This document shows positions 5,355 to 64,000 of a stretch of 64,000 nucleotides of DNA, piece by piece; position 1 is the stretch's first letter; each line of letters starts with the position of its first letter. The stretch lies in IMG/VR virus record IMGVR_UViG_3300028833_003520. One strand, written 5' to 3'. This DNA is from a virus (taxonomy: Duplodnaviria; Caudoviricetes). The notes below the pieces were generated by a model, which was not told where the DNA came from, did no database searches, and was given only the letters and a program-made list of their open reading frames with translations. A program made the translations under genes and the position numbers.

Positions 5355-5383
5355 TTGACTTTCTCCATATATGGTGTTATAGT
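5355..5383 (+). promoter_or_regulatory. Class A promoter TTGACT-ttctCCATATATGGtgt-TATAGT
   Basis: 17-bp spacer containing a perfect 10-bp palindrome; five copies in the window. Confidence 0.8.
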
Positions 5384-5427
5384 GTTTTTATAGTATAAAC
5401 ACAACAGTAAGTTGGGAGGAAATAAAT

Positions 5428-6183
5428 ATGGTCGAGATAATTGATAAGAACGATGCACCTGAAGCAGTCAAGAATGCGAAGGTAGTAGGTGGTTCAACAT
5501 TTTTCGATGCCGACACTTCGGAAAGATTTGAGGCTGAGCCTAAATCTGTAAAATCGACTGGTAAGACGATTTCGAAGGTCGTAACAAGAGAGAATATCGA
5601 AGAGGCATACGCATCTGCACAGCAGATTGCGGTTGATGCTCAGACTCCCGAAGATGTGAATAAGGGACCTCTCAAGGCTTATGAAGGTAAGTATGATTAC
5701 AAATACTTATCTCGTGAGACTGTCGATATTATGCATAAGAATGCAAGTACAGGAGCAATTTCTGCAAAGGAGTCGCTTAACTCCGTACCGTATGCAATTA
5801 AGTTAGGTACTGCTATTAGTTCGGAGAACTATGGTACAGCAGTTCTTACAGGTATTCAGATGTTACCTGGCGTTATTCGTCAGAAGACCGCACAGTATAA
5901 GAATATGATTGGTTCGGTTGAAGGTTATCAGTCTTATAAAAAGGATATCGAGGGTCTTTCGAAAGAAGAGAGAAAGTTGGCTCGTAAAGAACTGGCAGAA
6001 TGTCAGGTTAAGGCTTTAGAGCATCTCGATTCTGCTGATAAGCAACTCTTCAAGGAGAAAGCGGCTCAAGGTATCGACAAGGGCGTTGAGGCTCTTGCAA
6101 GCAGAGCAGACCGTGTAAAGAGGGCAGAATCCATCGCTCCGTCTGGTGCGTCAGCAGATTATGGCGTAGAACTCGGAGGCTAA
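5428..6183 (+). CDS. Hypothetical protein, first gene after a class A promoter
   Basis: SD GGGAGG; ends RADRVKRAES...YGVELGG. Confidence 0.7.
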   Translation: MVEIIDKNDAPEAVKNAKVVGGSTFFDADTSERFEAEPKSVKSTGKTISKVVTRENIEEAYASAQQIAVDAQTPEDVNKGPLKAYEGKYDYKYLSRETVDIMHKNASTGAISAKESLNSVPYAIKLGTAISSENYGTAVLTGIQMLPGVIRQKTAQYKNMIGSVEGYQSYKKDIEGLSKEERKLARKELAECQVKALEHLDSADKQLFKEKAAQGIDKGVEALASRADRVKRAESIAPSGASADYGVELGG

Positions 6184-6184
6184 T

Positions 6185-7213
6185 ATGATTAAACACCATA
6201 AAGGACCTCTTGGGGAGTTCGATTACGATAATTCGATTTGGGAAATTAAATCGACGAGGAATGATTTTGACCCTGCTAATCCCATAATGACTATGGAATA
6301 TAAGTTGAAGGGCAATATCAATGGCTCGGAGATAGAAATACCTTATGGTCTTGTAAAAGCAGATAATCTTTTCAAAGATTGTTCCATACAGACACCACCT
6401 TCAATACCTGCAACTGTTAAAAGTTGTAGAAGTATGTTTGAAGGTTGTTCAGGACTGCGTAAGGCTCCCATTATCCCGAAAGGGGTTAAGGATTGTCATA
6501 GTATGTTTAACGGTTGTATATCGTTAAGAGAGGCTCCTCCGAAAATTCCTGACACTGTTCGGGATTGTCGTTTTATGTTTAACCTCTGTGAGAGTCTGAA
6601 GTCAGGTTCGCCGATGGAAGATACTTTACCGAATGAGCCTGTTCATTGTGACGCAATGTACTATGGCTGTACGCATCTGACAGAGGCTCCGAGAATGGGT
6701 CTGTATGTAGATTCTATGGCTTTTACTTTCAACGATTGCAAGAAGTTGAAATATCCACCTGTTCTTCCTAAAAAGGTTGAGACATTAGCAGGTTGTTTCA
6801 AGGGTTGTGAAAGACTTGAAATGGCACCAAGTATTGGTGAAGGCTGCGTTAAAATGGGTCAGACTTTTAGCGGTTGTAAGAAGTTGGTTTATCCGCCTAC
6901 AATCCCTTATACGACGAGATATATGGAAGGATGTTTTGAGGGTTGTAAGAGTTTAACAACCGTTCCTGCTATTCCACCGTCTGTGGAAACAAGTTCTTCT
7001 CTTACGGTGTTTAGCGGATGTTCGCAGAATGTTCAAGACAAAGGCGAATGGGCATTCAAGAACAGAGGTTGTGATTTTGAGCAGTATGGCGTTGTTTCGA
7101 AGCCCAGTCACCGTATCAGAGGTGATGGTAAGAGGAAACTTCCTTCGGTTGATACGAAGGACTCAGATGAGCCAAATAAGAACCCGAATGATGGCGATTT
7201 TGGTAATTCATAA
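6185..7213 (+). CDS. BspA/DUF285-like leucine-rich repeat protein without signal peptide
   Basis: Repeats MFxGCxxLxxAPxIPxxV; C-terminal KRKLPSV tail. Confidence 0.8.
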   Translation: MIKHHKGPLGEFDYDNSIWEIKSTRNDFDPANPIMTMEYKLKGNINGSEIEIPYGLVKADNLFKDCSIQTPPSIPATVKSCRSMFEGCSGLRKAPIIPKGVKDCHSMFNGCISLREAPPKIPDTVRDCRFMFNLCESLKSGSPMEDTLPNEPVHCDAMYYGCTHLTEAPRMGLYVDSMAFTFNDCKKLKYPPVLPKKVETLAGCFKGCERLEMAPSIGEGCVKMGQTFSGCKKLVYPPTIPYTTRYMEGCFEGCKSLTTVPAIPPSVETSSSLTVFSGCSQNVQDKGEWAFKNRGCDFEQYGVVSKPSHRIRGDGKRKLPSVDTKDSDEPNKNPNDGDFGNS

Positions 7214-7238: not shown

Positions 7239-7625
7239 ATGGATAAGAAAGAAGTCAAAAAGAAGATGGCTCAGATGAGCAAGGCAGAGCAACAGCAGGC
7301 TGAAGCCGAGGCAAAGAAGGCTGAAAAGAAGCGTAAAGAAGCCGAAGCACGAAGGAATGCCGAAGTCAAAAAGAGACGCATTGCAGAGCAACAGGCTCGT
7401 GAAGAGGCAGAACGCAGACAGAGAGCCGAAAGGTTTGCCGAAAGTCAGGGCAAGACTGTCGATAGCAAGCCTGCCCGTATAAGAGGCGAAAAACCTGAGG
7501 CGAATGTTCGTAATCGTCGTACAGAGGCGGCTAATGAGCGTCTCAAGATTGCAAAGATTGAGAATAATAAAGCCGAGCAGGAAGCCGAAGGCGAGCGTGT
7601 AAAGATAGGCAAGCGATACGTTTAA
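7239..7625 (+). CDS. Charged coiled-coil hypothetical protein
   Basis: K/E/R/A-rich ORF with SD GAAAGGAA. Confidence 0.6.
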   Translation: MDKKEVKKKMAQMSKAEQQQAEAEAKKAEKKRKEAEARRNAEVKKRRIAEQQAREEAERRQRAERFAESQGKTVDSKPARIRGEKPEANVRNRRTEAANERLKIAKIENNKAEQEAEGERVKIGKRYV

Positions 7626-8121: not shown

Positions 8122-10365
8122 ATGGGTTTGAAACAATCCGTTGTAATAGTCAACGAGTTTTCTATAAAGAATAAATCGGGTAAGGGTGGTTCACGAGGTG
8201 GAACACCTGGCGACTATGTAACACGATATATGGCTCGTCCTAAAGCAACCGAGGATTTGACACCTGTAAGGTTACAGGACACAGACAAGTTCATTACGAG
8301 ATATATGGCTCGTAAGGAAGCGTCTGAGCAGTGCATTTCAGTCGAAGACGAAAAGGAGCGTATGCGTGAGGCTCAGAAGTTCGGCGGCATAGCCTTTGGT
8401 TATGGCGACGTTTCTTTGTCTGACAGTAAACTTCGTTACGCCAGTAAGGATATACAGAAGGAATTCGAAAGGGGAAAGACGGTCTTAAAGACAGTCTTGT
8501 CTTTTGACGAAGAATACCTCAAATCTAACGGAATCGTTGACGAAGACTTCGAGTTCAAGGAACGAGGAGACTATCGTGGTAACATCGACCAAATGAAACT
8601 CCGTATGGCTATAATGAATGGCTTGGATAAAATGAGCAAAGACTATGATGACTTACGTTATGTAGGCGTTATACAGGTCGATACGGCTCATATACATTGC
8701 CATTTGGCTATGGTGGATGCAGGTCGAGGTAACATTATGCCTGACGGCACGCAAAGAGGGAAACTGTCTGAAAAGAACAAGCGTGATTTGAGGAGAGGAA
8801 TTGATAATTTCCTTGACGAGAAGAAGAAAGTCTTAATGATGACGAGTAATGTCTCAAGAGACAAGAGGAATGCCTTGTGCTATATCAAAAAGTTTACTCA
8901 TAAGACGATGGATGAACACGGTACTCCGCAACTTCTTATGGCTTGTCTTCCTGAAGACAAGAATCTGTGGCGTGCATCGACTAATCGCAAGGAGATGAGA
9001 AAGGCTAATGCAATAGTCAGAGATTATGTAGAAGAGGTATTGAAACAGCCCGATTCAGGTTATGAAGAGGCTATGGAGTCCATACTTCAGTATGCAGATG
9101 AGCGTCGTAGCCGTGAAGACTTGGACAACAAAGAGTATCGTATGTTGTGCAAAAATGGTCGAGAGCAGTTGGTCGAAGACTGTATGAACGGTGTTTATGC
9201 AGTATTGAAGCAAATTCCTGATGAAGAGCGTACTGTTAAGACACCTCTGCTTGATACGATGAGTATGGATTACGAAGAACTGAGCACGAAGGCACAAAGT
9301 GACGAGATGTCGATGTTCGGTTTCAGACTTCGTTCATATAATAACCGTCTGGAATATCATAAGAAGGAAATGAATAAATACCACGAGTATGTACGAATGT
9401 ACGAAGATACTCCTGATGCGGCACGTTCTTCTAAAGTGCTGTATGACTTCTTCAAGGAAGAAGAGGAGTATAATCAGAAACTCGTCGGTAAATATAGGCA
9501 TTTCCTTTCTTTCGCAATCCCTGATGAGAAATATGAGGACGATTTTACAGAACTAATGCAGTATCGTGGAAGGATGACCAATTTAAGACGATTAAAGGAC
9601 GATAAGTCCTTAAAGCGTATGAATCCTGACCGTGCTGAAGAAGAAGGACGTAAAATCTACGGACAAGCAGGCGGTAGATATGCTGCGACAAATCCAAATA
9701 TTCTTGAAACCCGACTCATCAATATGAGATTGAGATACAATCGAATGGAAGAGGATTTTAAGATGAAACTGTCCGAATACGGAATGGTAATGGGTATTAA
9801 GGACGGTAAGATGGTTGTTGAAAGGGGAGAACAGTTCCCATTTGATGATGTTAAGGCTTTAGACTTACATCACCTCGGTTACGATTGGCAGGAAGATATT
9901 ATTATTGCAAAACGAAATGTTGATAACTTCATTGAGGCGACAGACAATCGTTATGAGAAGTATCAGGCTGCAGTACAGTATCTTAAAGATTCTGACCAGG
10001 AGTTGATGATAGACCAGTTGCCTACTAAGGATATTCAGGCTATGAAGGAACTCGCAGACAGTTTGAGAACAAACCCTGTCTTGCCGAAGAGTGATGTCTA
10101 TGAAGGATATAAGCACGACGGTCGTACTGTAAGCCTTGATTTCGATTACGGCGAGGATATGCAACGAGCAGTTAAGATGACCGTTAGAAGCGTCGCAAAT
10201 GCTCCAGATTTCGACGAGAGGCGTTCTACGAGGTCTGTACCTGTTATTCCTGCTGAAGCACCTATAGAGCCTTCTGGAAGGCGTACAGGACGTAATGTAC
10301 CTGATGTTGGTAATAAAAGCCCTGATAACGATTTGGATTCTGTCAGAAGACAGAGAGGCGAATGA
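8122..10365 (+). CDS. mobL: MobL-family conjugative relaxase
   Basis: N-terminal YVTRYMAR Tyr motif, KTVLSFD, RGNIDQMKLR, YVGVIQVDTAHIHCHL (HUH); ATG 8122 after AAGGAG. Confidence 0.8.
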   Translation: MGLKQSVVIVNEFSIKNKSGKGGSRGGTPGDYVTRYMARPKATEDLTPVRLQDTDKFITRYMARKEASEQCISVEDEKERMREAQKFGGIAFGYGDVSLSDSKLRYASKDIQKEFERGKTVLKTVLSFDEEYLKSNGIVDEDFEFKERGDYRGNIDQMKLRMAIMNGLDKMSKDYDDLRYVGVIQVDTAHIHCHLAMVDAGRGNIMPDGTQRGKLSEKNKRDLRRGIDNFLDEKKKVLMMTSNVSRDKRNALCYIKKFTHKTMDEHGTPQLLMACLPEDKNLWRASTNRKEMRKANAIVRDYVEEVLKQPDSGYEEAMESILQYADERRSREDLDNKEYRMLCKNGREQLVEDCMNGVYAVLKQIPDEERTVKTPLLDTMSMDYEELSTKAQSDEMSMFGFRLRSYNNRLEYHKKEMNKYHEYVRMYEDTPDAARSSKVLYDFFKEEEEYNQKLVGKYRHFLSFAIPDEKYEDDFTELMQYRGRMTNLRRLKDDKSLKRMNPDRAEEEGRKIYGQAGGRYAATNPNILETRLINMRLRYNRMEEDFKMKLSEYGMVMGIKDGKMVVERGEQFPFDDVKALDLHHLGYDWQEDIIIAKRNVDNFIEATDNRYEKYQAAVQYLKDSDQELMIDQLPTKDIQAMKELADSLRTNPVLPKSDVYEGYKHDGRTVSLDFDYGEDMQRAVKMTVRSVANAPDFDERRSTRSVPVIPAEAPIEPSGRRTGRNVPDVGNKSPDNDLDSVRRQRGE

Positions 10366-22113: not shown

Positions 22114-22142
22114 TTGACAATCTCCATATATGGTGTTATAGT
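22114..22142 (+). promoter_or_regulatory. Class A promoter
   Basis: TTGACA-atctCCATATATGGtgt-TATAGT. Confidence 0.8.
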
Positions 22143-23127: not shown

Positions 23128-23129
23128 AA

Positions 23130-23231: not shown

Positions 23232-23235
23232 TATT

Positions 23236-48921: not shown

Positions 48922-50742
48922 ATGCTTTTTGCTGAATCTGATAAAAATTATAAGTATGCACAGGAACATTTTCCTTGCTTGAATACTTTTACACAGCAGT
49001 TGAAAGCACCTGGATTTGAAATTCAGAGCCGTGAGAAAGAGATGGACTCCATCGAAGCGGCTCTTAATCGTCCTGAACTTTGTAACGTGTTACTTTTAGG
49101 AGAGCCTGGCTCTGGTAAGACAGCACTTGTGCAGTCTGTAATGATGCACGATACCAAGAGGCTTTATCTTGAAGTTGACCTTTCCAAGATGATTGCAGAT
49201 ACAAATGACGTTAACGAGATGGCTACAAGGCTTAAGTCCTTGTGCGACGAGGTAACGATATTCCGTAAGGAAATGCAGACTGAACTTGTTCTTTTTATGG
49301 ATGAGTTCCATCAGATTATGATGTTGTCTAATGCGGCGGCTGAAGCAATGAAGCCGTTGCTTGCTGATTCAGGCACACGAGGCGTGCGTATCATAGCAGC
49401 CACAACAGAAGCAGAGTTCAGAATGTATATTGCTCCGAACCAGCCGTTGGTGGAGCGTCTGCAGAGAATCAGACTCAAAGAGTTGGATAAGCAGGCAACT
49501 ATCAATGTTCTTAAGAACAGAGCCAAGATATATGGCGTAGAAGACCAAATCACTGAGTATAACAATATATACGGACTTATCTATGAATATACGCAGAGAT
49601 ATATCCCTGCGAACGCTCAGCCTCGTAAATCATTGCTCGTATTCGATGCGATGATTGGTTGGCATAATTCAAAGGCGAGACCTTTGGATAAGGCACTCCT
49701 TGCTGACGTTATTTATGAGTCAGAAGGTGTCAATGTTACTTTTAGAGTAGATGCTACATCAATCAAGAAGGAACTTGACAAGTATGTATTTGCTCAGGAC
49801 TTTGCGACAAGCGTTATTGAGCAAAGGCTTCAGATTTGTGTTGCTGACCTTAATAATAAGTCAAAGCCTATGAGTTCATTCTTATTCACAGGTTCAACTG
49901 GTGTAGGTAAGACTGAGGTTACGAAGCAGTTAGCCCGAATTCTTTTCGGTGATAATGCGAGAACAAGTCTTATCCGTTTTGATATGACAGAATATGCTAC
50001 AGAGGACTCTCTGGAGAGATTCAGAGCAGAACTTACACAGCGTGTTTGGAATAGACCTTATTCTATCGTTCTTTTGGACGAGATTGAGAAGGCGTGTGCT
50101 CCTGTTACACGAGTTCTCTTGCAGGTTTTGGATGATGGCAGACTTATGGATGAGAATAACCGTGAGGTTTCATTCCTTAACTCGTATATTATCCTTACTA
50201 CCAATGCTGGTAATGAGATTTATAAGACCATTGCCCAGTATTCTCCTGATGATACAGGTTCAGGTAAGGAATTCCATAGGTATGAGAAACTCATCAGACA
50301 GTCTATTTCAAGCACGACAGGTGATAATAGATTCCCTCCTGAGTTGCTTGGACGTATCGACTGTATCGTGCCGTTCCAACCTCTTTCAGAGGAAACGAAG
50401 AAGAAGATTGTTAAGCATAAGTTGGAAGAGTTAATCAAGAAGGTTTCTGATATACACAATGTTGCTCTCAATTATGACCAGAGGGTCATACAGTACATTG
50501 TTGAAGATAACCTTGACTCTGACTCTGATGCAGGTGGTGCACGTACTGCAATCGCTAAACTCGAATCTGAGGTTTATACCGAAGTATCAAGAGTTATCAA
50601 CACTTGCCCTGATGCCATCAGATTGAGAATCGTTGTTGACGGTAAGATGATGTGCGAAGACAAGACGCAACTTGAATCGACGGCTTCTATCAGCGTTAAG
50701 GTTGGCAGTGAGACGAGACAAGTTAAGAAGACCTACTATTAA
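48922..50742 (+). CDS. ClpA/ClpB-like double AAA+ ATPase lacking N- and M-domains
   Basis: GEPGSGKT/FMDEFH and GSTGVGKT/LLDEIEKA, RFDMTEY, LLQVLDDGRL, FPPELLGRID. Confidence 0.9.
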   Translation: MLFAESDKNYKYAQEHFPCLNTFTQQLKAPGFEIQSREKEMDSIEAALNRPELCNVLLLGEPGSGKTALVQSVMMHDTKRLYLEVDLSKMIADTNDVNEMATRLKSLCDEVTIFRKEMQTELVLFMDEFHQIMMLSNAAAEAMKPLLADSGTRGVRIIAATTEAEFRMYIAPNQPLVERLQRIRLKELDKQATINVLKNRAKIYGVEDQITEYNNIYGLIYEYTQRYIPANAQPRKSLLVFDAMIGWHNSKARPLDKALLADVIYESEGVNVTFRVDATSIKKELDKYVFAQDFATSVIEQRLQICVADLNNKSKPMSSFLFTGSTGVGKTEVTKQLARILFGDNARTSLIRFDMTEYATEDSLERFRAELTQRVWNRPYSIVLLDEIEKACAPVTRVLLQVLDDGRLMDENNREVSFLNSYIILTTNAGNEIYKTIAQYSPDDTGSGKEFHRYEKLIRQSISSTTGDNRFPPELLGRIDCIVPFQPLSEETKKKIVKHKLEELIKKVSDIHNVALNYDQRVIQYIVEDNLDSDSDAGGARTAIAKLESEVYTEVSRVINTCPDAIRLRIVVDGKMMCEDKTQLESTASISVKVGSETRQVKKTYY

Positions 50743-50811: not shown

Positions 50812-53103
50812 ATGGGTTTCAGAAAGAAAAACGGAAAGCCTTCAAACGGAACACCTGAATCCGCAGACAAGCCTGCTGTTGCAGCAACGCCTGCAGAGTC
50901 TCCCAAGAAGGCGAAGAAAAAGGGTGTCGGTATGGCTTCCCTGTTTACGGAAACCGTACCTGAACAAGTTTTGGATGAACTCAATAGCAACACTCCCTTC
51001 ATCCTCGACATAGATGGAGAGAAGAAGTATATTGCAGTTCAGTTCACAGCCGAGGCTATTGGTGGTCTCGATAAAAAGACTTCAGCGAAGGATGAGGCTA
51101 AAGGACAGTTGGTTCAGCAACTTGATTCGGGTGCTATTTCCGCTTACTTTACGGCTCAGACTTTGGAAGACGAGGAAATTACCTTTATCCCTAATTCTAC
51201 TTCACTGATGAATGTAGAGGAGTTTGGTCTTGTAAGAAATCTTCCTTGGACATTTGTTACCATTGATGGTGACGGTACTATTGAGAAGACTTCGATTAAG
51301 ACAGGCTTTGATGAGGTCAAGGAAATTCTCGAAGGCAAGAAGAGTATTGACGATGTATTCGAAGGTGCTTTTGTAGGAAAGGATATTCCGACAGATGAAG
51401 CACCTGCAGATGAAGTCAAAGAGGAGCCTGAACTCACCGATATCGACTCAATTCCTTCAGAGATTGTTGACGATGTACCCGAAGGTGATTCTCCTGAAGA
51501 TGGTGAGGACGATGAGGTTCCTGCATTTGAAGAGGAACTTCCTGACGTTGGCGGAGATATGCCGTTAGTAGAAGTTCCTGAGTATGACGATGTTCCCGAA
51601 ACATCTGATTATGATGACATAGGTGGTCTTGATGAAGGCGAGGCTCCCGAAGAGGTAGAGGAAACAACTGATATTCCTTATGATGAAGACAGACCTTTCG
51701 ATTATGACGCAAAGTCTGTTAATGAGGAGATTATCAGACGTTTCTATTCAGATGAACTTGGTCTTGAGGTTTCAACAGAGCCGTTTGATGGTCATTATGT
51801 TCACGGTAACAAGTATCTTCCTTTCGAAGAAAATAGACCTGAAGGTTGGCTTAATAACTATCTCAACGAGATGTGTAGAAATGCCAATATTGAGATGAGC
51901 AGAATTCACGCTGAAAATCTTAATAAGATTAGGCAGTATTATCTCCAGACAATGGCGAAGCACTGTGAGGACATTACGAAGGAACTTGATGTTCAGAATA
52001 TGTCCACAACGTATGGTCAGTATAAGCAGAATATCGACCGTGAGAAGGAAGAGGCTATTGCTCATATTGATGATAAGGTTGCACAGAGGAAACTTGAACT
52101 CAATCAGGATTGGGATAGAAAGTTGTCTGAAGTAGCAGAGCAGGGTGCTCAGGATGCTCGTAATCGTTATCGTGAGAGATACGGAAGACAGCACGATGAT
52201 GACCTTACTCATATTGGACCTATCATCAGAGAAGAGATTGAGTCTAATTACACTCTCGATGTACGTCATCTTAATGAAGACCGTAAGGCAGAGGCTCTTA
52301 AGAGACTTGACTATGCGGTAAACGAGACGCTTGCCGAAGTAAATGTTCTTTATGAGAAGTTACTTGCTGAGGAAATCAAGCGTTACAGAGAGTGGGAAGG
52401 CGATATTCGTGACTATCTCGATGACAACCGTAAGAACGATGTTGCCCACGACCAGGCACTTGCCGAGGAACTCGCACAGAAGACTAAGGCAGATAAGTTG
52501 AATGAGGAATGGACAGCCAAGACTGCTGCTATGACAGAGGAGTTCGAGGCAAAGAAGGCATCTCTGCACGCCGACCTTGAGCGTATGGAGAAAGAGCACG
52601 CACTTGCTCTTAAGAAGCAGAACGACGATTGGCAGGAGAAGTTGGATTCTGAGAAGTCTATCGTTGCGTCACAGCGTGAGCAGATTGACGGACTTATTGA
52701 TAAGTATGCGGCTCTTGACGAGACCAAGAAGAAGGAATACGCATCATTTATTAACGAGTTGAAGAACGAGAAGGAAGCATCAGATAGCAAGTACAAGGAT
52801 ATGATGGAGTCTAATAAGAGTTCCAATCGTGTTGCTTTATTCGCTACGATTATCGGTGTTATCTGTGCTCTGGCAATCGGATTCCTTGCAGGTTATTTCG
52901 TATATGCAAAGATGTCTGCAAAGACAGCCGAAGAGCAGGTTATTGCTGAATATCAGGCTCGTATTGACGAGTTGGAGAGAAAGTATAATCTGACCACAGG
53001 TCAGAATGCAACAGATTCAACTGTAACTGTTACACCTGCTCCGACTGGTACTACTGAGACAACTACTGAGACATCAGAAGCAACATCAGAAACAACTAAC
53101 TAA
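50812..53103 (+). CDS. Large acidic coiled-coil protein with a C-terminal TM, putative transfer protein
   Basis: Acidic linker, long coiled coil, TM near the C-terminus; lies between the Clp ATPase and VirD4. Confidence 0.7.
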   Translation: MGFRKKNGKPSNGTPESADKPAVAATPAESPKKAKKKGVGMASLFTETVPEQVLDELNSNTPFILDIDGEKKYIAVQFTAEAIGGLDKKTSAKDEAKGQLVQQLDSGAISAYFTAQTLEDEEITFIPNSTSLMNVEEFGLVRNLPWTFVTIDGDGTIEKTSIKTGFDEVKEILEGKKSIDDVFEGAFVGKDIPTDEAPADEVKEEPELTDIDSIPSEIVDDVPEGDSPEDGEDDEVPAFEEELPDVGGDMPLVEVPEYDDVPETSDYDDIGGLDEGEAPEEVEETTDIPYDEDRPFDYDAKSVNEEIIRRFYSDELGLEVSTEPFDGHYVHGNKYLPFEENRPEGWLNNYLNEMCRNANIEMSRIHAENLNKIRQYYLQTMAKHCEDITKELDVQNMSTTYGQYKQNIDREKEEAIAHIDDKVAQRKLELNQDWDRKLSEVAEQGAQDARNRYRERYGRQHDDDLTHIGPIIREEIESNYTLDVRHLNEDRKAEALKRLDYAVNETLAEVNVLYEKLLAEEIKRYREWEGDIRDYLDDNRKNDVAHDQALAEELAQKTKADKLNEEWTAKTAAMTEEFEAKKASLHADLERMEKEHALALKKQNDDWQEKLDSEKSIVASQREQIDGLIDKYAALDETKKKEYASFINELKNEKEASDSKYKDMMESNKSSNRVALFATIIGVICALAIGFLAGYFVYAKMSAKTAEEQVIAEYQARIDELERKYNLTTGQNATDSTVTVTPAPTGTTETTTETSEATSETTN

Positions 53104-53202: not shown

Positions 53203-56200
53203 GTGGCAAAGCGAAATTGGGATTTAGTTCGTAAACAGCAGAACGCTGATAAGTTGCAATATCGTGATGTATATGAAGACCAGCAGATGGAACGAAGCAA
53301 GTTGCCTGCAAAGCAGACAGCGACGGCTCGTACCATATTTGCTATCGTAGTTGCTCTTATGGCTGCAGGTGCAGCGTATGCGATTGCGTGTGTCTTCGGT
53401 TCATTGTTTAGCGGTTTAGGGGATATAGGAAGTACAGATACAGGTTCAGGGGGACAGGGTACTGTCATAGAACAGCCTTCGGAAACCGCTTCATCAACAG
53501 GTGTCAGAATCGAGAGTGGCACTGTTATTAAGGATTCCGTTGTTGTTATCAGTACAACGACAGGTGAGACATTAGATACTTGGGTTTATACGAACCTTGA
53601 TAACGGTGACGTAAGGTATATCTGTGATGCTCATCCTGGTTATTCTTTTGCAACAGAGTATGAAATCGCAGATGGTTACAAAAATGGCGTATGGTATTTA
53701 GATGAAGCCGCACAGCAGAGTGCTACATCAGTTTATTGGGATTACCATACGACGTGGATGACACTTTATCGTGGTGACCCGAACGGGGAACACACGGAAA
53801 TAGATACTTGGGAAAATACAGGTGGTGTTTATGGTGAGCAGTACACTTGCTCTAATCATCCGTCTTTCAGTTTTAGCGACCAAGAATCCGTTGAGGCTCA
53901 TTATGATTCCGAAGGTAATTGGTCAGATACAGTAGTTTCACAAGGTAATGCAGGACAGGAAAGTTCTACAGATAGCGGTGATATGCCGTCTATATCCTTT
54001 GGTGTGGACTGGACTCCTTCATTCGGTAAGATTTTATTTGCAATAGCCGTTGGTGGTATTGTTTTTGCTCTTTTACACACGGCTATGATGCGTAACTTGA
54101 AAGCACAGAATATGCTTTCAGATACCTCTGATATTAACCAATATCAGAACGACCAGCATATTGCTCTCCCTGAAGAAATTCAGGAGAAGTTTGACTGGTT
54201 TCCCGATGTTGGTGCGACCTCGGATGTACAATTCTCGTCAATGATTTCGCATATGGCTCTTTCTAACAAGGGTATTAAGAAAGTCAAGTTCTCGAAGCGT
54301 GCAGATAAGGATATCTACGACGCAGACGGAGATATTGAATACTATAAGGGCGAAGTTCTTCTTGATGATAATGGACAGCCGATTCAAACAGAGGTTCCGA
54401 TGTTTGATGAGCAGTTTATGGAAGACCTTTTTACTGCTTCAGGTGCTCCCCCGAAGGATAAAACGATTCGTAAGTATTACGATGCGACGAAGATTAAGTA
54501 TAATCCTGACGGAAGCAATCGAGATAAACTTGGCAAGTATAACACAGTTGCAGACCTTATCAATGCCGATTGGGAATTGCCTTATTATGAACCTCAAAGA
54601 CCTGCAGGTGCATATATCGTAGATACTGCTCCTGTAAATACGATGGTCTTGGCTATTACCCGTGCAGGTAAAGGTCAGACTGTAATCGAGCCTACGCTCG
54701 ATATGTGGATGCGTGAGAGAAGACCTAACAATATGGTTATAAATGACCCGAAGGGTGAGTTGCTCGTTAAGAACTATGTTAGAGCAACTGTTAGAGGTTT
54801 CCAAGTTGTTCAGTTTAACCTTATCAACGCTATGAAAACCGACATTTATAATCCGTTAGGAATGGCAGCAGAAGCCGCACGAGAAGGAGACTTCACCAAA
54901 TGTGCAATGTACGTCGAGAACATCGCAGATGTATTCTTCCCTCTTGACGGTGGTGATGACCCTGTGTGGCCTAATGCTGCGAACAACGCATTTAAGAGAG
55001 CATCTTATGGTCTTATCGACTATTATCTTGAGGAAGAAAAGGAGTTACGCCTTTTCGCCGAAAGAACGAAGATGGACGAAAAGATACTTGAGGCTAAATT
55101 GGACGAGATGTGGGGTAAAGTTACGCTTTACAACACTTATCAGTTGTTCGTTCAGTTGACTTCGAAGAAGTTAAAGAACCCTTCTGTTGAATTCGCAAAG
55201 AAGGCAAAAGAGGGTGAATATGATAATCTTTCTGATGAGGATTATGATATCGAACTTAATAAGGTTGAGAGACAGTCTTTACTTTGGGAAGACAAGCCTG
55301 AGTGTGACCTGTTGACCTTGTACTTCAATGCAACAGATGCGTTGCCGAGAAACTCAATGAGAACTCTCGTTGCAAACGCAAACAATGCGTTGAAGGCGAT
55401 GGCTGGTGCTGAGAAGATGATGGCATCCGTTTACGGTATTGCTATCACGGCTATGTCGTTCTTCACAGACCCGACGATTTCAACACTGACATCAGGCACA
55501 CCTTCGCAGAATGTTGACCTTGCAGGTCTTTCATTCCCTCGAAGATTAGGCGTAAGATTTAACTCAGACTTCGTGCATAACTATCATCTGATTGGTATGC
55601 AGGCAAAATGGATGAGTTACGAGGACGATAAGTTTACGAAGGAACTCGGTAAAGACTTTTATCACGAAGACCTTATTACAAGAGAAGGTTGGGCAAAGTA
55701 TTACTTCAAGGGCAAGTACCCTAATGATGTTGCTTATGTTAAGTTATCTATCGTTAATCCGAAGACGGAATTGACAATCAGAACATTCTACTTCCAGTTT
55801 AAGAAGAACTATCAGACTTCATTGGACGGACGTAAGTACGTGCTTGACCCTGTACTCAATGAGAAGATAGTTAAGAATGGTATTCTGACAGAGTTGAGAC
55901 CGTTCAGACAGGAGACGAAGGATGGTAAGCAGGTATTAGTACCGCTTGCTATGGGTGAAAAGCCTGATGCGAACACAGTTTATAAGAAAGGTAAGACGAC
56001 TTTTGCTCAGGATAAGATTATCAATATCACTGGCGACTCCACGAGGGGACAGGTTCAGACCAATGCTATTATCAGAACGATGGCTCGTTATGCAGAAAAG
56101 CCGAAGATGGTATTCTTGGTTACACCTCCTCACTTGATGAAGTATGCGAAGTTGATTCTTATTCTTATCAAGCAGTTGGTTGACTTGAACTTCGACCAGT

Positions 56201-57579
56201 CTTATATGACGAAATCCAATCAGAAGCCTCTCTATAAGACGAGATTTATGTTGGATGAGTTAGGTAACCTTCAGTCCGAAGGACACGGTATTTCAGGCTT
56301 TGAAACGATGCTTTCTATCGGTCTTGGTCAGGAACAGCAGTTTACTCTTATCTTGCAGACATTACAGCAGTTGAGAGACGTTTATGGAGACTCTGTTGAT
56401 AAAATCGTTCAGGGTAACACATCTAACATTGTGTTCCTTAAATCAACGGATGACTCAATGCTTGATACTCTGCAGAAAATGTCTGGTACAACGCATAAGT
56501 CTTTTACTGATTCAAAGACAGTAACAAGGGATATGCAGGAGATTTTCCAAGGTATGAGTGCTAACGAAGGTAAGGCATCTTATACGATGACTACTAAGGA
56601 AGTGCCTGTTATTTCGTACAACGATATGGCGTTCATTTCTGAGCGTAATAGTATTGTGTTCCGTGCAGGTGATGCACCGATTTGGAACAGAAACGAGACT
56701 ATCCTTCCGATGTCTTGGAGACTTTTCAAGAATACTATTACACAGCCTGGTAAGGAATATACCTTGCAGACGATACCGACACTTTCTTCGGCTATCGACT
56801 TCGATGTACGTAAGAATCAGCCTGACTTCCAGAAGATGCTTGATAAGCGTATGGCTCAAGCAAATAAGGCTCCTGATGCAAAGAGTTTGTATCAGATGTC
56901 TTATGATTTCACTGATTATCAGATGGAACAGCAGGACCCTGATATTCTCGCAGATGAAATTATGGATATCATTAACACATATATCCGTGAGGCAAATACT
57001 GACGAGGAAGAAGAGGAAGTATTTGACTATGATTTCGGCGAAGACGATATGTGGGGTTTTGCAGAAGATGATAGTTCAACACAGGAAATGGTCAGTGCTA
57101 TCGCTAATGGACAGTCAATCCCTGTTAATGGCGTAGATAAGACCTTTGTAGGTGTTGATAAAACTGCTTCAGAGAAGCGTTTCGCAGGCGGTCTCTTATC
57201 ACCTGATATGCTCGTCAATGCGTCAGGTATAAACCATAGTCTTGATAAAGACATCATTAAGGTTTACACAGATATTAAAGGCGACTTATGGCGTGATACA
57301 GCGTACTTTGTTGTACGCAATGGAGACCTTTATGGTATTAACAATGAGCCTTATATCATTAAGGCAGATAACTCCGAAGCCCTTGAGGTATTGAATAATG
57401 CCGCCAAGGATGAAGATAGTAACGTCTATGGTGACGAGGATATTGATATATCTGAAGTCCATTCATTCGGCACTTATACAGTAACGGATGGTTTCTATCG
57501 CTTCCTTGCAGGGCAGAAGAGGTGGTCTTTCGCAAACGGTAAGTTTGAAGAGGCTATGTATCGACAATTAGATTCGTAA
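53203..57579 (+). CDS. virD4: Type IV coupling protein VirD4/TraG with an enlarged inter-TM loop
   Basis: Two TMs, Walker A AITRAGKG, INDPKGE, YNPL, Walker B FMLDELGN, LQTLQQLRDVYG. Confidence 0.9.
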   Translation: MAKRNWDLVRKQQNADKLQYRDVYEDQQMERSKLPAKQTATARTIFAIVVALMAAGAAYAIACVFGSLFSGLGDIGSTDTGSGGQGTVIEQPSETASSTGVRIESGTVIKDSVVVISTTTGETLDTWVYTNLDNGDVRYICDAHPGYSFATEYEIADGYKNGVWYLDEAAQQSATSVYWDYHTTWMTLYRGDPNGEHTEIDTWENTGGVYGEQYTCSNHPSFSFSDQESVEAHYDSEGNWSDTVVSQGNAGQESSTDSGDMPSISFGVDWTPSFGKILFAIAVGGIVFALLHTAMMRNLKAQNMLSDTSDINQYQNDQHIALPEEIQEKFDWFPDVGATSDVQFSSMISHMALSNKGIKKVKFSKRADKDIYDADGDIEYYKGEVLLDDNGQPIQTEVPMFDEQFMEDLFTASGAPPKDKTIRKYYDATKIKYNPDGSNRDKLGKYNTVADLINADWELPYYEPQRPAGAYIVDTAPVNTMVLAITRAGKGQTVIEPTLDMWMRERRPNNMVINDPKGELLVKNYVRATVRGFQVVQFNLINAMKTDIYNPLGMAAEAAREGDFTKCAMYVENIADVFFPLDGGDDPVWPNAANNAFKRASYGLIDYYLEEEKELRLFAERTKMDEKILEAKLDEMWGKVTLYNTYQLFVQLTSKKLKNPSVEFAKKAKEGEYDNLSDEDYDIELNKVERQSLLWEDKPECDLLTLYFNATDALPRNSMRTLVANANNALKAMAGAEKMMASVYGIAITAMSFFTDPTISTLTSGTPSQNVDLAGLSFPRRLGVRFNSDFVHNYHLIGMQAKWMSYEDDKFTKELGKDFYHEDLITREGWAKYYFKGKYPNDVAYVKLSIVNPKTELTIRTFYFQFKKNYQTSLDGRKYVLDPVLNEKIVKNGILTELRPFRQETKDGKQVLVPLAMGEKPDANTVYKKGKTTFAQDKIINITGDSTRGQVQTNAIIRTMARYAEKPKMVFLVTPPHLMKYAKLILILIKQLVDLNFDQSYMTKSNQKPLYKTRFMLDELGNLQSEGHGISGFETMLSIGLGQEQQFTLILQTLQQLRDVYGDSVDKIVQGNTSNIVFLKSTDDSMLDTLQKMSGTTHKSFTDSKTVTRDMQEIFQGMSANEGKASYTMTTKEVPVISYNDMAFISERNSIVFRAGDAPIWNRNETILPMSWRLFKNTITQPGKEYTLQTIPTLSSAIDFDVRKNQPDFQKMLDKRMAQANKAPDAKSLYQMSYDFTDYQMEQQDPDILADEIMDIINTYIREANTDEEEEEVFDYDFGEDDMWGFAEDDSSTQEMVSAIANGQSIPVNGVDKTFVGVDKTASEKRFAGGLLSPDMLVNASGINHSLDKDIIKVYTDIKGDLWRDTAYFVVRNGDLYGINNEPYIIKADNSEALEVLNNAAKDEDSNVYGDEDIDISEVHSFGTYTVTDGFYRFLAGQKRWSFANGKFEEAMYRQLDS

Positions 57580-58089: not shown

Positions 58090-58118
58090 TTGACAATCTC
58101 CATATATGGCGTTATACT
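58090..58118 (+). promoter_or_regulatory. Class A promoter upstream of the Lys/Ala-rich gene and the RNAP gene
   Basis: TTGACA-atctCCATATATGGcgt-TATACT. Confidence 0.8.
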
Positions 58119-58185: not shown

Positions 58186-58812
58186 ATGGCTAAGGAACTT
58201 AAAAAGCAGTCTGGTTCTAAAGAACAGTCTGTGAGCCGTGAGACGAAGAAAGCCCTTGAAAAGCAGGCAGCATTAGTCGAGAAGCAGGCAAAAGACCGTG
58301 AAAAGCAGGTTGCTAAAGAGAAGGCAAAGGGTGTTGGTAAGGCAGGTATTGGTGTACTCAAGATTGCCACAGGTAACCCTATTCTTGCTATAGGCGGTGT
58401 TGCAAATCTCGCAAATGGTGCAGGTAAGACTGCGAAGGCTGAGAAGAATGTCGAGAAGAAGAATGATAAGGCTCTTGCAAAGCAGGAGAAGAAACTTCAG
58501 AAGGCACTCGATAAGGACCTTCAGGGTAAGACTGAAGCAGAGAAGGCTGCAATCAAGGCTGATTTTGAGGCAGAATCTCAGAAGGTTAAGGAAACTCATA
58601 ATCTTGAGCAGTCCACAAATCTCCAGACAACAACTGTTGCTGATATTAAGGCTCAGGAGAAGACGGTCAAGGCGAAGGAAAAGGCTAAAGCCGAGGTTGA
58701 TAAAGCAGAGAAGCGTGACACTCGTGTCAAGAAGGCAGAGAATAAACTCAATGTCAAGCAGATTGAAGCCAATGCTCAGGCACAGGCACAGTCTGACGGT
58801 TACGGTTACTAA
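58186..58812 (+). CDS. Lys/Ala-rich protein with a Gly-rich hydrophobic segment
   Basis: ATG 58186 after AAAGGAG; ends RDTRVKKAENKL...SDGYGY. Confidence 0.7.
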   Translation: MAKELKKQSGSKEQSVSRETKKALEKQAALVEKQAKDREKQVAKEKAKGVGKAGIGVLKIATGNPILAIGGVANLANGAGKTAKAEKNVEKKNDKALAKQEKKLQKALDKDLQGKTEAEKAAIKADFEAESQKVKETHNLEQSTNLQTTTVADIKAQEKTVKAKEKAKAEVDKAEKRDTRVKKAENKLNVKQIEANAQAQAQSDGYGY

Positions 58813-61800: not shown

Positions 61801-64000
61801 ACACCTCTGTGTAAGCATCCAGTTATGCATTGGGCAGATTACGTTCCGTTTGACCGTCGCCAGATGGTCTTCAACAACGCAATTAAGGCTCAGTGCATTA
61901 CAGGAAAGGTAAAGACTGCACAGATGACCTTTGGTGGTTGGAACTTTGACGATGGTTTCATCGTTACAAAGCAGTTTGCCGAGACATATAAGGTGCGTAA
62001 TAAAGATGACGTTCTTCGAGATATCGTTGTCGGAGATAAGATTCTCGATAAGAACGGTAACAAGGGTGTTATCTCACTTGTTATCGACCCTGATATGTCT
62101 ATGGAAGAAGCCCGTGAGCAGGGACTTGAAAATGTTCTTGCGATGGTAAAGGCAAACCCTGATATTCAGGTTTATGGTGCTCCATATCCTGCAGTATCTC
62201 GTTTTAACGGTGGTACAGCAAGAGAACTTATGGAGAATCCCTCAGATTTGCATATGCCAGACGGTACTATCAAAGAAGGATGTGTCGGCGAAGCCGAATT
62301 CATCGTTACACATATGGCTGTTGACAAGAAGTCACAGATTTATGACGACCAAGCCTTCGAAGAAGGTAAGGGTAGTAGAGCCTCTGCACAACTTGCTTGG
62401 GCATTGAATGCGAGAGGTGCGGAAGCAATGATGAGAGAGTTCTATTCTGATAATGATAGAGCCTTCACGACAATGCGTGAGTATTTCATCACTTGCGGCT
62501 ATGACTTATCCGAGACAGGTCAGATTATGCGTGGTTATACACCACACCCTGGCGAGGTAAGGAATGTCTTTGCTATGGAAGAAATCGAGAATATGCCGAA
62601 AGAGGGTTTAACTCAGTCGGCTATTCGTTCCAAGGTCTTCGATATGACAAGACAGATTCGTCATTCGGGTGGTTTTATGGAACTTCCGTTCCCGTTGACT
62701 TTCCCGAACGGTACTACTATTCCTCAAGTTCAGATTGAACACGATGTGATAACTGAAGCCGACAAGACTGACGTAAATTACACGAAGGATAGTTGGACAG
62801 TTAACCGTAATGGCAAGGAAATCACATATCATCGTAATCGGGAACTTTTGGATAACGGTGGCTCCAAGTTGGTTGATAGGAAGATTTCTGATGCAAAGAA
62901 GCCTATTTATGCATTGCCTGTAATGAGTTCTCATTTGAGAGTTGACCAGCCTTATCAGGATGGTACAACGATGCTTAACGATTGTACTGAATTCTATCAG
63001 TACATTTACAGAGCAGGTTTGACATATCTTGAAGCAGAGCGTAAAGGTGACAAAGCAGCAATGACAAAGGCTCGTAATGATGCTCAGCGTTTCTTTGATA
63101 GAATCACAGGTGATATTGTCGAGAATAGATTTGAAGACAATAAGCATAACTATTTCAAAGAAGGTTTGATGAGCAACAGAATGCCGAAGTCTTCTAACCC
63201 TGTTTGGACTGCTGACCCTCGACTTGATATTGAGGAAGTCGGTGTTTCGCCAGAAATGGCAGAAAGACTCGAACTTGAAGAGGGTGAAACAGTCTTAACA
63301 TTCCGTAACCCTGTTCTGCGTCCTGAAGGTGTTAGTGCAAAGAAAGTCAAAATCCTTAAGGGTATTGTAGGTATTGCAATTAACCCTGTAATGGATAAGG
63401 GTTATGATGGTGACTTCGATGGTGATACAGTACCTTTGAAGAAATTGCTCACACCTGAAGCAAAGGAAGAGGCTGAAAGACTTTACTCTGTAAAGGCAAC
63501 ACTTTTGGACTATGGTTCAAAAGACGAGGATGGCAACTATGGTCTCTTAATGAATCACGGTCTTGATTTGAAGACTGCTGAATATAATCGTCCTGAACTC
63601 AAAGACCAGTACGATGAGATTACGAAGCGTGTTAATGGATTTGAGAAGGATTATGCAAGCGGAAAACTTTCTTATGAGGAAGTTGATAAGATGCGTGAGC
63701 AGGCTGTTAAGGATTTGAACGATTATGTTCATAAGTGCTTTGAAGGCGGTGTTGGTGAAGCCATTATCAGTTACAAGGATATTTCGTCACACGTTGCTTC
63801 GTGTGAGGAGATTGTTAAATCGGGAGCAAAGGGAAGTTACAGTAAACTTGATGACTATTGTAACTATCTTGGAGCGTCCTACGAATATAATGTGGATGAG
63901 AATGGCGAGAAGACCTCTATTAACCTCGATACTGTTGAAGATTTGGAGACACCTTTTGGTGGCGATAAGGAATCTGCAAGACAGGCATCTATGGCTACGC
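58888..64000 (+). CDS. Single-chain (beta/beta'-fused) two-barrel DNA-dependent RNA polymerase, 3' truncated by the window
   Basis: Frame open from ATG 58888 (SD AAGGGG); beta-like GGWNFDDG, VGDKILDKNGNKGVIS, AVSRFNGG; beta'-like LPVMSSHLR, FRNPVL, NPVMDKGYDGDFDGD (63406-26), SGAKGS. Confidence 0.9.
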   Translation, partial: MAYSVAYKDWLFNCGNRSEYIIYRAIEEFSRQREERGDRPVSLSEGVALRQQILKNLESNPEINSYVSDAYDIGLKSLSNRIQMNPILMSIQAEGSFAKIFGGKSYENVSKEQLDSIIVTQENKAKDRRESFIESINEVLPGIELNEEKFNNLITTYTNAVVSVRNNGSYSYEPAVPLSPYCPAFTTRSFTYKNPALSLMKKSDKQTADGNYADFVRIYHPTRDDIEDQYDDFIRFYKAEYATFGENTKGRGDSAKTNIIKTDVPTFYTNEDDFYLNGLRKYLTEEDAAKVIKHCNRFVDRTGTPYKRANMKKSMELLQRIAEAGYDYTIVPKAGGQVDCRVSVLGSNYDISMIPQPNQSFAYNFGRVFCRESGVSYNLNTQNKSPEKGYKYEPYEASVTDAMNLLKFAMGEPVTVDTKNNVPLGKHRLISFNTPKGTVYRNNAYYNKGNEQIKNFTAYYGRSSDGVNVFLKANTSEVTPKTARFGRKGVSKEEDAELHLKEWIESARQTYTDEMDLENLIREARDHQNDPDYEFRFSGVPEIYAMQKNYWNVLTGKEHALAKVGQDDDEFDEVGVERAYYEGSPEDKVRQHFADSIHHDIGTFEPDANGKRYSIYGLTNYAVTDFNSTRFRLSVVAATNLLGFKPDELQDTDAQGDSVKNMLIRYDEKTAQPIFHHESKFVRNMGSVIKDTLQQSGIVIEDDDITIDDNGIVQYKGKKVINGEFRRDPKAKRYGTVSIEDGLDKPEEVVGHIGQIFAPEGKYNTVTTKFAGTKNYMFVPGYTAKILPQKDGENLPYEARTRLLGYEQLMSQRIRSQLRSDLFMTIDNYDGAALGMNTSLNKVYTNLYDVRHPVDYIERSREEGMDDSFLEAVLATEARRVRYDSVYKEQATLNAYYQAYTHKSTLIDDRNVNPLTLTGFRNMAIMTEEGDGYFDPDATSTGMNQGVTRYLVESAEVLPDGSIKRGDLDDKTPLCKHPVMHWADYVPFDRRQMVFNNAIKAQCITGKVKTAQMTFGGWNFDDGFIVTKQFAETYKVRNKDDVLRDIVVGDKILDKNGNKGVISLVIDPDMSMEEAREQGLENVLAMVKANPDIQVYGAPYPAVSRFNGGTARELMENPSDLHMPDGTIKEGCVGEAEFIVTHMAVDKKSQIYDDQAFEEGKGSRASAQLAWALNARGAEAMMREFYSDNDRAFTTMREYFITCGYDLSETGQIMRGYTPHPGEVRNVFAMEEIENMPKEGLTQSAIRSKVFDMTRQIRHSGGFMELPFPLTFPNGTTIPQVQIEHDVITEADKTDVNYTKDSWTVNRNGKEITYHRNRELLDNGGSKLVDRKISDAKKPIYALPVMSSHLRVDQPYQDGTTMLNDCTEFYQYIYRAGLTYLEAERKGDKAAMTKARNDAQRFFDRITGDIVENRFEDNKHNYFKEGLMSNRMPKSSNPVWTADPRLDIEEVGVSPEMAERLELEEGETVLTFRNPVLRPEGVSAKKVKILKGIVGIAINPVMDKGYDGDFDGDTVPLKKLLTPEAKEEAERLYSVKATLLDYGSKDEDGNYGLLMNHGLDLKTAEYNRPELKDQYDEITKRVNGFEKDYASGKLSYEEVDKMREQAVKDLNDYVHKCFEGGVGEAIISYKDISSHVASCEEIVKSGAKGSYSKLDDYCNYLGASYEYNVDENGEKTSINLDTVEDLETPFGGDKESARQASMAT

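Follow-up and report, generated by a model that had tools for sequence, protein, structure and literature searches.

A repeated operator-promoter and a shared C-terminal tag mark a gene set beside a conserved coupling protein, Hsp100 and RNA polymerase module in a rumen conjugative element

The window analyzed here is the whole 64,000-nucleotide stretch of the IMG/VR virus record IMGVR_UViG_3300028833_003520. It belongs to a conjugative, plasmid-like replicon of 243 kb from rumen Firmicutes, since its VirD4-type coupling protein (type IV coupling protein [T4CP] of a type IV secretion system [T4SS]) was matched letter for letter on a 243,497-bp JGI contig, which identifies that contig as the source replicon. 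Within this window we observe a co-regulated gene set under a shared and conserved operator-promoter, organized in short units apart from the relaxase and T4CP operons, and a shared C-terminal tag on unrelated proteins that is statistically tied to these units. One unit encodes a predicted single-chain RNA polymerase (RNAP), and a synteny of Hsp100, T4CP, and RNAP genes is conserved across phyla, from rumen Firmicutes to Rhodococcus plasmids. The most economical explanation, which we favor tentatively and with a little less than even confidence, is that the tag may recruit its bearers to the T4CP for translocation, and that the Hsp100 may unfold them as cargo.

Operator-promoters and the tagged gene set

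The exact sequence CCATATATGG, a 10-bp perfect palindrome that fills a promoter spacer, occurs five times in the window, at 5365, 22124, 26603, 44375, and 58100. It lies inside the 17-nt spacer of a 27-nt, sigma70-type promoter module with the architecture TTGACA or TTGACT, 17-nt spacer, and TATAGT, TATACT, or TAGAAT. The whole module (TTGACnnTCTCCATATATGGnGTTATA, at most 3 mismatches) gives five matches against 0 expected by chance, all on the plus strand: copy 1 at 5355..5383 (operator 5365-5374), copy 2 at 22114..22142 (operator 22124-22133, directly after a terminator at 22069-22100), copy 3 at 26593..26621 (operator 26603-26612), copy 4 at 44365..44393 (operator 44375-44384), and copy 5 at 58090..58118 (operator 58100-58109). 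These stand ahead of the starts 5428, 22183, 26658, 44585, and 58186, with the RNAP open reading frame (ORF) after 58186, and the single promoter class that an initial annotation had placed before these five starts is thereby borne out. Copy 4 is separated from start 44585 by 210 nt, with a second promoter (44478-44506) in between. A sixth copy lies ~115 nt beyond the RNAP stop, at window-equivalent position ~65415. In addition, a one-mismatch operator, ACATATATGG, is found on the plus strand at 7660-7669; another strong promoter, which begins 35 nt further downstream (7704-7732), heads the relaxase operon.

The module extends beyond this replicon. A bovine-metagenome relative whose RNAP is 67% identical carries it at both equivalent positions flanking the RNAP unit, and a more distant element shows a variant, TTGACA...CCCATATATGC...TAGAAT, ahead of an HU gene. 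A metagenome scan with the promoter module returned only three short loci; at locus L010, four genes downstream of the module have acidic ends of a relaxase-like flavor and no RR-x-P core, which is suggestive, though the locus is too small to count. In short-read assemblies, the ~30-bp modules act as dispersed repeats at which contigs break or branch, and several public contigs start or stop near copies.

Unit boundaries were drawn from terminator and promoter scans. Unit 1 (promoter 5355, genes 5428-7625) ends at the next promoter, 7704; unit 2 (promoter 22114, genes 22183-26589) ends at the next operator promoter, 26593; unit 3 (promoter 26593, gene 26658-28163) ends at a terminator at 28190-28220; and unit 4 (promoter 44365, gene 44585-45121) ends at a terminator at 45145-45174. 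Unit 5 (promoter 58090) comprises the 58186 gene and the RNAP gene and ends at the next operator promoter (~65415), from which unit 6, with four genes of 338, 752, 182, and 659 aa, runs to a terminator. The relaxase operon has its own promoter (7704-7732) and the T4CP/Hsp100 operon lies behind the terminator at 45145; neither is on an operator promoter, so that this promoter class marks a particular gene set and not transfer genes generally. Strong core hexamers around a perfect palindrome are the classic layout of a repressor-occluded promoter, and this layout suggests that a repressor could occlude the CCATATATGG promoters. A ribbon-helix-helix-like protein of 66 aa (48638..48838, plus strand), which adjoins the ClpB-like gene and does so also in the relative, with a similar beta-strand there, is one putative candidate for such a repressor.

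The products of these units are diverse. Unit 1 opens with a 251-aa protein without known family (5428..6183, plus strand) bearing a loose tail (...RVKRAESIAPSG...VELGG), followed by an LRR_5 (BspA-type) leucine-rich repeat (LRR) protein of 342 aa (6185..7213, plus strand; tail KRKLPSV...GDFGNS) and, as its last gene, an untagged Lys/Glu/Arg-rich protein of 128 aa (7239..7625, plus strand). Unit 2 contains four tagged genes in a row (22183..25961, plus strand) encoding 314, 249, 424 (LRR_5), and 229 aa, with the tails RRLPNVP..QLGE, RKLPNVP..QLGE, RRLPDYP..QYGE, and RRMPSVP..QVGG, respectively, and then an untagged LRR paralogue of 175 aa (26062..26589, plus strand). Unit 3 encodes a tagged protein of 501 aa (26658..28163, plus strand; tail KKRRLPDRT...ETPELEL), and unit 4 a protein of 178 aa (44585..45121, plus strand) with a beta-rich domain, a long helix, and a disordered acidic tail (...AQAEIGG). 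The first gene of unit 5, 58186..58812 on the plus strand, encodes a Lys/Ala/Glu-rich protein of 208 aa (214 aa in the relative) and is a conserved partner gene before the RNAP gene.

The tag is bipartite, with a core R-R-[L/T/M]-P-[D/N]-V-P located 19-28 residues from the C-terminus and then an acidic stretch, often with a hydrophobic-Gly-Glu/Asp end. Across 32 anchored tails, taken from the window and from other elements, the consensus is RR[LTM]P[DN]VP, the core starts mostly 19-23 residues from the end, the net charge after the core is -3.3, and half of the tails finish in hydrophobic-Gly-[E/D]. A second, looser flavor consists of an amphipathic Ala/Lys/Gln stretch followed by a similar acidic end; it occurs in several units on the opening gene (5428, 44585) and also on relaxase orthologues and at locus L010. 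The tail is disordered in the sole structure model that covers one, that of the 178-aa protein.

Among 61 plus-strand proteins the pattern [KR][KR][LMT]P has eight matches, six of which are 19-26 aa from the C-terminus; 500 shuffles gave a mean of 0.14 and a maximum of 2 near the C-terminus. The tag core is present in 6 of 11 operator-unit genes and in 0 of 50 other plus-strand genes (Fisher p = 8e-6), and the core or a terminal xG[EG] in 8 of 11 versus 0 of 50 (p = 6e-8), with an xG[EG] C-terminus in six window proteins. Mean net charge in unit proteins is +1.5 at residues -30 to -16 and -1.9 in the last 15, compared to -0.6 and -0.6, respectively, in other proteins. The initial annotation had described basic-then-acidic C-terminal tails on most of these products, together with a lack of signal peptides. 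The charge pattern holds, but the motif is sharper than described, and "most" is fair at 6 of 11 for the core and 8 of 11 for core or end, three unit genes being without either; no signal peptides, as claimed, and no transmembrane (TM) segments were found in the operator-unit proteins.

After the last 30 residues were trimmed, kinship was seen only among the LRR proteins (6185, 23989, and the tail-less paralogue 26062), and the remaining tag bearers showed no mutual similarity. The tagged proteins could not be usefully assigned through NCBIfam, PHROGs, or a protein atlas. Four known signals were considered for the tag and dropped: an AT-hook requires RGRP, a Tat signal is N-terminal, a sortase LPXTG signal requires a TM anchor, and an encapsulin or microcompartment targeting peptide has no shell genes to go with it here. 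It could also be that only the regulon is real and that the tails are functionless compositional or inherited leftovers, such as short C-terminal exons of common ancestry or products of recombination at the repeated promoters, which act as repeats in assemblies and could drive a shuffling of gene ends. We regard this as highly improbable, since the tag sits at gene 3' ends, away from the promoters, at a fixed distance to the stop codon across proteins, is kept on RNAP orthologues that are only 40-45% identical in elements of 42-65% GC, and shows an enrichment that argues against chance.

The fused RNA polymerase and its transcription

The ORF at 58888..~65297 (plus strand) runs past the window end at 64000 and encodes 2136 aa at full length. 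Sequence and structure modeling indicate that its product is a two-barrel-type, single-chain beta-beta' RNAP. Pfam matches are to Rpb1_2 (1.2e-8) and, weakly, to Rpb2_6 at 1042-1067, in beta-then-beta' order. The beta hallmark GDKILDKNGNKGVIS, which we take to be the counterpart of the GDK...GNKG lysine motif of Escherichia coli beta, lies at aa 1049 and is kept in 116 of 118 RNAP homologues, and the beta' hallmark DFDGD at aa 1509 is kept in all 118. A model of residues 950-1750 has a pLDDT of 85.6, and its top Foldseek matches are all bacterial beta' subunits (probability 1.00). Similarity to cellular RNAPs is only ~14-20% over the core, and ~900 N-terminal residues are without recognizable family. 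The RNAP family comprises >550 clusters at 90% identity, with members 1.8-2.5 kaa long that are almost all unnamed or called "hypothetical protein." Matches are found on plasmids of Actinobacteria, Staphylococcus, and Lactococcus; a tblastn search against 50,697 phage records gave no match, nor did an RNAP query against genome contigs.

The initial annotation had proposed looking for the tail at the RNAP C-terminus beyond the window, and the outcome is mixed. This RNAP ends in GRRTIETP...EGKIP (GRRTIETPDETP(N/T)KDVEGKIP), a degenerate tag, but many orthologues that are 40-67% identical end in the canonical one, examples being ...ARRMPNVPES...DDFGD, ...ARRVPNVPEAG...GGLGE, ...KRRTPSQP...GDLGE, and the Arthrobacter-type ...RRTPRVVP...GGPELG. 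A basic-Pro core within the last 40 aa is found in 46 of 118 RNAP homologues. The gene directly after the RNAP gene on this replicon is tagged, as are genes adjoining RNAP in elements of 42%, 55%, and 65% GC. From its occurrence on RNAP orthologues and RNAP-adjoining genes across this range of GC, the tag is an old, system-level feature, with the RNAP as one regular bearer.

These orthologues bear on whether the tag could instead direct Sec-independent export to the donor surface or medium, by the T4SS or another route, for example of LRR adhesins for mating-pair formation, with the RNAP tail resembling the tag by coincidence or as a vestige. Repeats of the LRR_5/BspA type are characteristic of surface proteins, the tagged proteins are without signal peptides, and the tail of this particular RNAP is degenerate, all of which would suit such a role. 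We nevertheless consider it very unlikely: canonical tags on dozens of RNAP orthologues, along with the relaxase variant, make a purely extracellular destination hard to accept, and the 178-aa protein gives weak OB-fold/SSB-like matches.

To assess transcription, RNA contigs were placed on 44-64 kb from three runs of rumen metatranscriptomes, which represent two samples and two studies. A DNA run has a flat depth of ~15, so the uneven RNA-run signal reflects transcription. The 44585 unit, at a depth of about 800-6400, gives by far the most abundant transcript of the region, ~100-fold above the neighboring T4CP operon (mostly 25-50 in the two deeper runs and about 0.2-8 in the third). Depth falls to about 0.6-4 in the spacer at 57.3-58.0 kb and is 18-178 over the 58186 gene. 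RNA contigs over the 44585 unit run from 44409 or 44530 to the predicted terminator, stopping at 45133-45143, and contigs of one sample start at 58136, 18 nt beyond the -10 hexamer of copy 5.

A hairpin on the plus strand at 58829-58854 (-28.2 kcal/mol, z = -6.2) separates the 58186 gene from the RNAP gene, and co-transcription of the two had been proposed with this caveat. Contigs from two studies (58136-60618 and 58180-58980) span the hairpin and the RNAP start codon, which speaks for co-transcription, but assembled contigs fall short of proving one continuous transcript. Across the hairpin, the third run shows a ~7-fold loss of depth, from 177.6 to 25.6. Given the contigs that cross it and its poor U-tract, the hairpin is not a full stop and looks like a leaky attenuator at most, or a stabilizer. 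In the relative, the gap from partner gene to RNAP is only 26 nt.

The abundant product of unit 4 belongs to a small family (12 representatives). Foldseek gave its fold no match with E <= 0.001, and VIA scores reached Z = 4.2 at best; among the weak structural rows, OB-fold ssDNA binders are over-represented (Pf3 SSB, PrgE of pCF10, PriB, RPA). As a lead only, this modeled, beta-rich protein may be a candidate ssDNA binder.

Transfer genes, conserved order and the proposed export

The MobL relaxase (747 aa, 8122..10365, plus strand; E = 1.7e-62 over residues 16-425) is ~50 aa longer than its orthologues and ends in GRNVPDV...RQRGE, the variant tail that the initial annotation had noticed. Of the proteins considered here, the relaxase alone is certain to be a T4SS substrate. 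Relaxase orthologues end in a basic, then amphipathic stretch followed by Q[FL]G[ED] (38 of 120); this stretch differs from the tag, and the Q[FL]G[ED] end is the only shared part.

The VirD4/TraG-type T4CP (1458 aa, 53203..57579, plus strand; T4SS-DNA_transf 3.8e-20, TraG-D_C 3.1e-12) is followed by a terminator at 57606-57637. It has both Walker A (TRAGKGQT) and Walker B (FMLDELGN) motifs and comprises two TM helices, a VirD4-type nucleotide-binding domain (NBD), a ~370-aa insert at the all-alpha domain site, a very acidic stretch, and a family-specific C-terminal domain that is conserved from Firmicutes to Arthrobacter and Amycolatopsis. Residues 58-270 form a ~210-aa extracytoplasmic loop between the TM helices, unusual among VirD4-type proteins, and some T4CP homologues contain inteins (PF14528, PF05204). 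Upstream lies a T4CP paralogue of 600 aa (46702..48504, plus strand) with 27% identity over two stretches and without Walker A or the large insert, which may, judging by its sequence, be a degenerate T4CP acting as an adaptor. A conserved 763-aa protein (50812..53103, plus strand), encoded between the Hsp100 and the T4CP, has one TM segment at ~aa 670-688 and a Thr/Glu-rich end.

Any of these three proteins, the T4CP, its Walker-A-less paralogue, or the 763-aa protein, could act as the hub if the tag were a docking motif for donor-side assembly without transfer, in which case the tagged proteins, RNAP and relaxase included, would gather there at the membrane to assemble or maintain the transfer apparatus, or to link transcription with transfer. 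In 11 of 32 tails, the RRLPxVP core matches +xPhiPxPhiP, a pattern of class-I polyproline ligands that typifies scaffold docking, several conserved and unassigned module proteins are at hand as hubs, and no channel ATPase was found. We consider this account unlikely. Why LRR proteins, orphans, and a polymerase should share one membrane hub is hard to explain, export or threading signals are marked by a set distance to the free C-terminus and by a disordered acidic end, and an Hsp100 without ClpP loop adjoins the translocation motor. A predicted complex of the 22183 tail (last 60 aa) with T4CP residues 620-985 plus 1210-1458 scored 0.06 against a mark of 0.32, which is not evidence either way.

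That Hsp100 (606 aa, 48922..50742, plus strand), two genes upstream of the T4CP, is the ClpB-like unfoldase that the initial annotation had correctly placed in the VirD4 cluster. It is a minimal class-I (ClpB/ClpC/ClpA-like) protein with two complete AAA+ modules plus ClpB_D2-small. It has no N-domain and no long M-domain, its NBD1 starting at ~residue 36, and is thus not a ClpB/Hsp104 disaggregase proper; it aligns to ClpA 181-697 in a single stretch and to ClpB, Hsp104, and ClpC in two. No ClpP-docking [LIV]-G-[FL] tripeptide is present in the 48922 protein, and its best solved relatives are PTEX HSP101 (top sequence match), ClpC, and ClpB. The element encodes a second, separate Clp-type ATPase on the minus strand (39929-41762), where a ClpX-sized AAA+ gene (40722-41762, 346 aa; AAA_2 plus ClpB_D2-small) with a GIGF loop of the ClpP-docking type is followed by a 260-aa protein without assignment.

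With two such machines on the element, the tag might be a degron or handling signal for the ClpB-like protein or for the 40722-41762 ATPase, which could dock on host ClpP, and the regulon products would be kept short-lived or remodeled in the donor or in new transconjugants. ClpX and ClpA do recognize many substrates by C-terminal disordered tags, the minus-strand protein has its GIGF loop, and a repressor-gated regulon would fit burst-and-clear kinetics. Still, the ClpB-like protein beside the T4CP has no ClpP loop, known Clp degrons finish in hydrophobic or Ala residues and not in Gly-Glu, the extreme abundance of 44585 mRNA is odd for a product destined for destruction, and the tag is conserved with the T4CP/RNAP module across phyla, whose relatives show no ClpX-sized gene in the portions examined. 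We therefore view a degron as quite improbable.

The order Hsp100, X (~630-770 aa), T4CP, and RNAP is conserved in the bovine-metagenome relative, where the 214-aa gene precedes RNAP, and an equivalent order is found in Rhodococcus fascians pGS01, with no called gene between T4CP and RNAP. pGS01 also shares the upstream layout of large unassigned proteins, lysozyme, small genes, and then MobL. Upstream of its conserved transfer genes, pGS01 carries at 62-73 kb a minus-strand block with ssb and a cytosine methyltransferase that looks like a leading region.

Under the reading of the tag as a translocation signal, an element-encoded dimeric repressor would bind the palindrome in the spacers of six near-consensus sigma70 promoters and thereby gate six short transcription units. 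Their soluble and mostly mutually unrelated products (two LRR proteins, the 178-aa protein, several orphans, and the RNAP with its partner) would be recruited by the tag to the giant VirD4-type T4CP, unfolded by the adjacent, ClpP-independent Hsp100, and exported through the conjugation channel into the recipient alongside the relaxase-led DNA. There, the cargo would act before any plasmid gene is expressed, and the RNAP would transcribe or prime the incoming strand. The initial annotation had likewise proposed that the cargo and the RNAP are made beforehand in the donor and delivered with the DNA, a proposal that our findings support in part. Known biology offers precedents: at least 16 plasmid proteins are transferred by F-type T4SSs (PMC8406263, PMC11288057), T4SS substrates must be unfolded (PMC5826034), and primases travel with conjugated DNA (PMC5512222). 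That the RNAP itself is transferred is possible and rather doubtful, being less certain because its own tail is degenerate and many homologues are without the core. The broadest form of the proposal, in which a widespread class of Gram-positive conjugative elements from several phyla would inject their own RNAP and a score of effectors through a T4SS, addressed by the tag, read by the T4CP, and unfolded by the Hsp100, seems to us less likely than not.

Several observations weigh against export. Genes 7239, 26062, and 58186 have no clear tag despite lying inside operator units, this RNAP's own tail is degenerate, ~60% of RNAP homologues are without a clear basic-Pro core, and the surroundings of the module on the Rhodococcus plasmid show no evident canonical core. 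LRR proteins of the BspA type are usually found at the cell surface. Neither the T4CP gene nor the ClpB-like gene is itself under the operator promoter. The RNA data cover two of the six operator units, and these two, 44585 and 58186, are expressed roughly 100-fold apart in vivo, so that regulation is not simply uniform. No VirB4-type ATPase or other channel protein was recognized in the window or in 10 kb upstream (the best VirB4-like trace in the latter being TraC_F_IV at E = 0.16), and since no channel protein was recognized, the export route is only presumed. The VirB4 profile PF12846 has no match in pGS01, and the large upstream proteins have no significant Pfam or PDB sequence match. Finally, the links of the tag to the T4CP and to the Hsp100 are inferred.

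The remainder of the window, with a GC content of ~40% and nearly all genes on the plus strand, adds context. A cell-wall lysozyme (117-1784; Phage_lysozyme2, 9.2e-16) has an equivalent gene in the equivalent place in pGS01. A RecD2-like helicase is encoded at 13679-16132, a D5-type primase-helicase on the minus strand, and a paralogous pair of HNH endonuclease genes (12760-13533 and 18354-19259, plus strand) is embedded in plus-strand operons. The 303-aa protein at 32409-33320 has as its C-terminus a long Asp/Tyr/Gly/Trp-rich low-complexity tail (...YDYDDYDWDGGWDSDDWDGGYDSGYDYDSGYDWGSDW), and a tandem trio of paralogous genes of ~165-180 aa, without family assignment, occupies 34346-35930. 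Between the minus-strand AAA+ pair and promoter copy 4, ~2.5 kb (41800-44360) is nearly without credible ORF; Rfam gave no matches anywhere in the window, this region included. Phage packaging was dropped as an explanation, no capsid or terminase genes being seen. The stretch is contained in sheep and bovine rumen/gut metagenomes (14 studies), and no near-identical DNA was found in plasmid and phage collections.

Meaning and relation to known systems

Conjugative protein transfer is an established phenomenon whose signals, above all outside Proteobacteria, are ill-defined. The present tag is a sharp, searchable consensus that marks a whole candidate cargo set with its own regulon, next to a conserved motor module. 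Should it prove to direct export, it would provide a rule for predicting conjugative effectors in Gram-positive elements and a portable tag for protein delivery between bacteria, the Hsp100 would be the first unfoldase dedicated to a T4SS, and plasmids, like some phages, would be able to supply an RNA polymerase of their own. Should transfer be refuted, the family of fused beta-beta' RNAPs and its constant association with a giant T4CP would still be essentially undescribed; the literature searched contains no description of a conjugative-element beta-beta' RNAP, of an Hsp100 attached to a T4CP, or of the tag.

Short, disordered C-terminal signals with a charge pattern on unrelated proteins are known from Agrobacterium VirB/D4 (Arg-rich tails) and Legionella Dot/Icm (Glu-rich "E-block"), and such effector signals are recognized at the coupling-protein complex. 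The tag described here resembles them in these respects and differs in being bipartite, with near-fixed spacing and far higher sequence definition, and in occurring on Gram-positive-type elements. The closest parallels for the cargo are the F-type conjutome, in which early-acting plasmid proteins (SSB, ParA/B, and PsiA/B of pED208, among others) are exported with DNA via the coupling protein (PMC8406263, PMC11288057), and primase transfer (Sog of ColIb-P9, TraC1 of RP4; PMC5512222), where a nucleic-acid polymerase is the cargo, as proposed for the RNAP here. Both use signals in C-terminal regions, a further likeness to the tag. However, they are Gram-negative systems that lack a sharp consensus tag, cargo regulon, T4CP-adjacent Hsp100, or RNA polymerase, and transfer here is inferred.

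As for the polymerase, virion RNAPs (N4, crAss-like, phiKZ-type, P23-45; PMC5512222, PMC7598289, bioRxiv 10.1101/2022.12.01.518664) are likewise very large, element-encoded enzymes that may confer host independence at entry. The P23-45 (tape-measure-fused) and phiKZ-type enzymes are two-barrel RNAPs, as here, whereas the N4 enzyme has a different, T7-like fold. Virion RNAPs travel in capsids or tails, whereas the present enzyme stands in a MobL/VirD4 conjugation context and matches no phage record. According to a review, virion-type RNAPs are restricted to phages, and their counterparts in conjugation are the primases (PMC5512222); if injection of the RNAP proves true, this enzyme would itself be a conjugative counterpart of the phage virion RNAPs. 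The Helicobacter rpoBC fusion, pGKL2 Orf6 (PMC2919709), and YonO share with it a one-chain beta-then-beta' order and both hallmarks, but it is far longer than YonO and is carried on conjugative elements of Firmicutes and Actinobacteria.

Two further comparisons concern the unfoldase and the operator. PTEX HSP101 and T6SS ClpV are ClpB-family double-ring ATPases that work without a protease partner at a protein-translocation apparatus, a setting similar to that of the present Hsp100, which differs in having no N-domain or long M-domain and in being associated with the T4CP by gene order only. KorA/KorB of RP4 and ArtA of pSK41 exemplify one small element-encoded repressor whose operator is repeated across promoters, and the repeated operator in our data would fit a similar arrangement; here, however, the operator is a 10-bp perfect palindrome in the promoter spacer and controls the units of tagged proteins, not the relaxase and T4CP operons.

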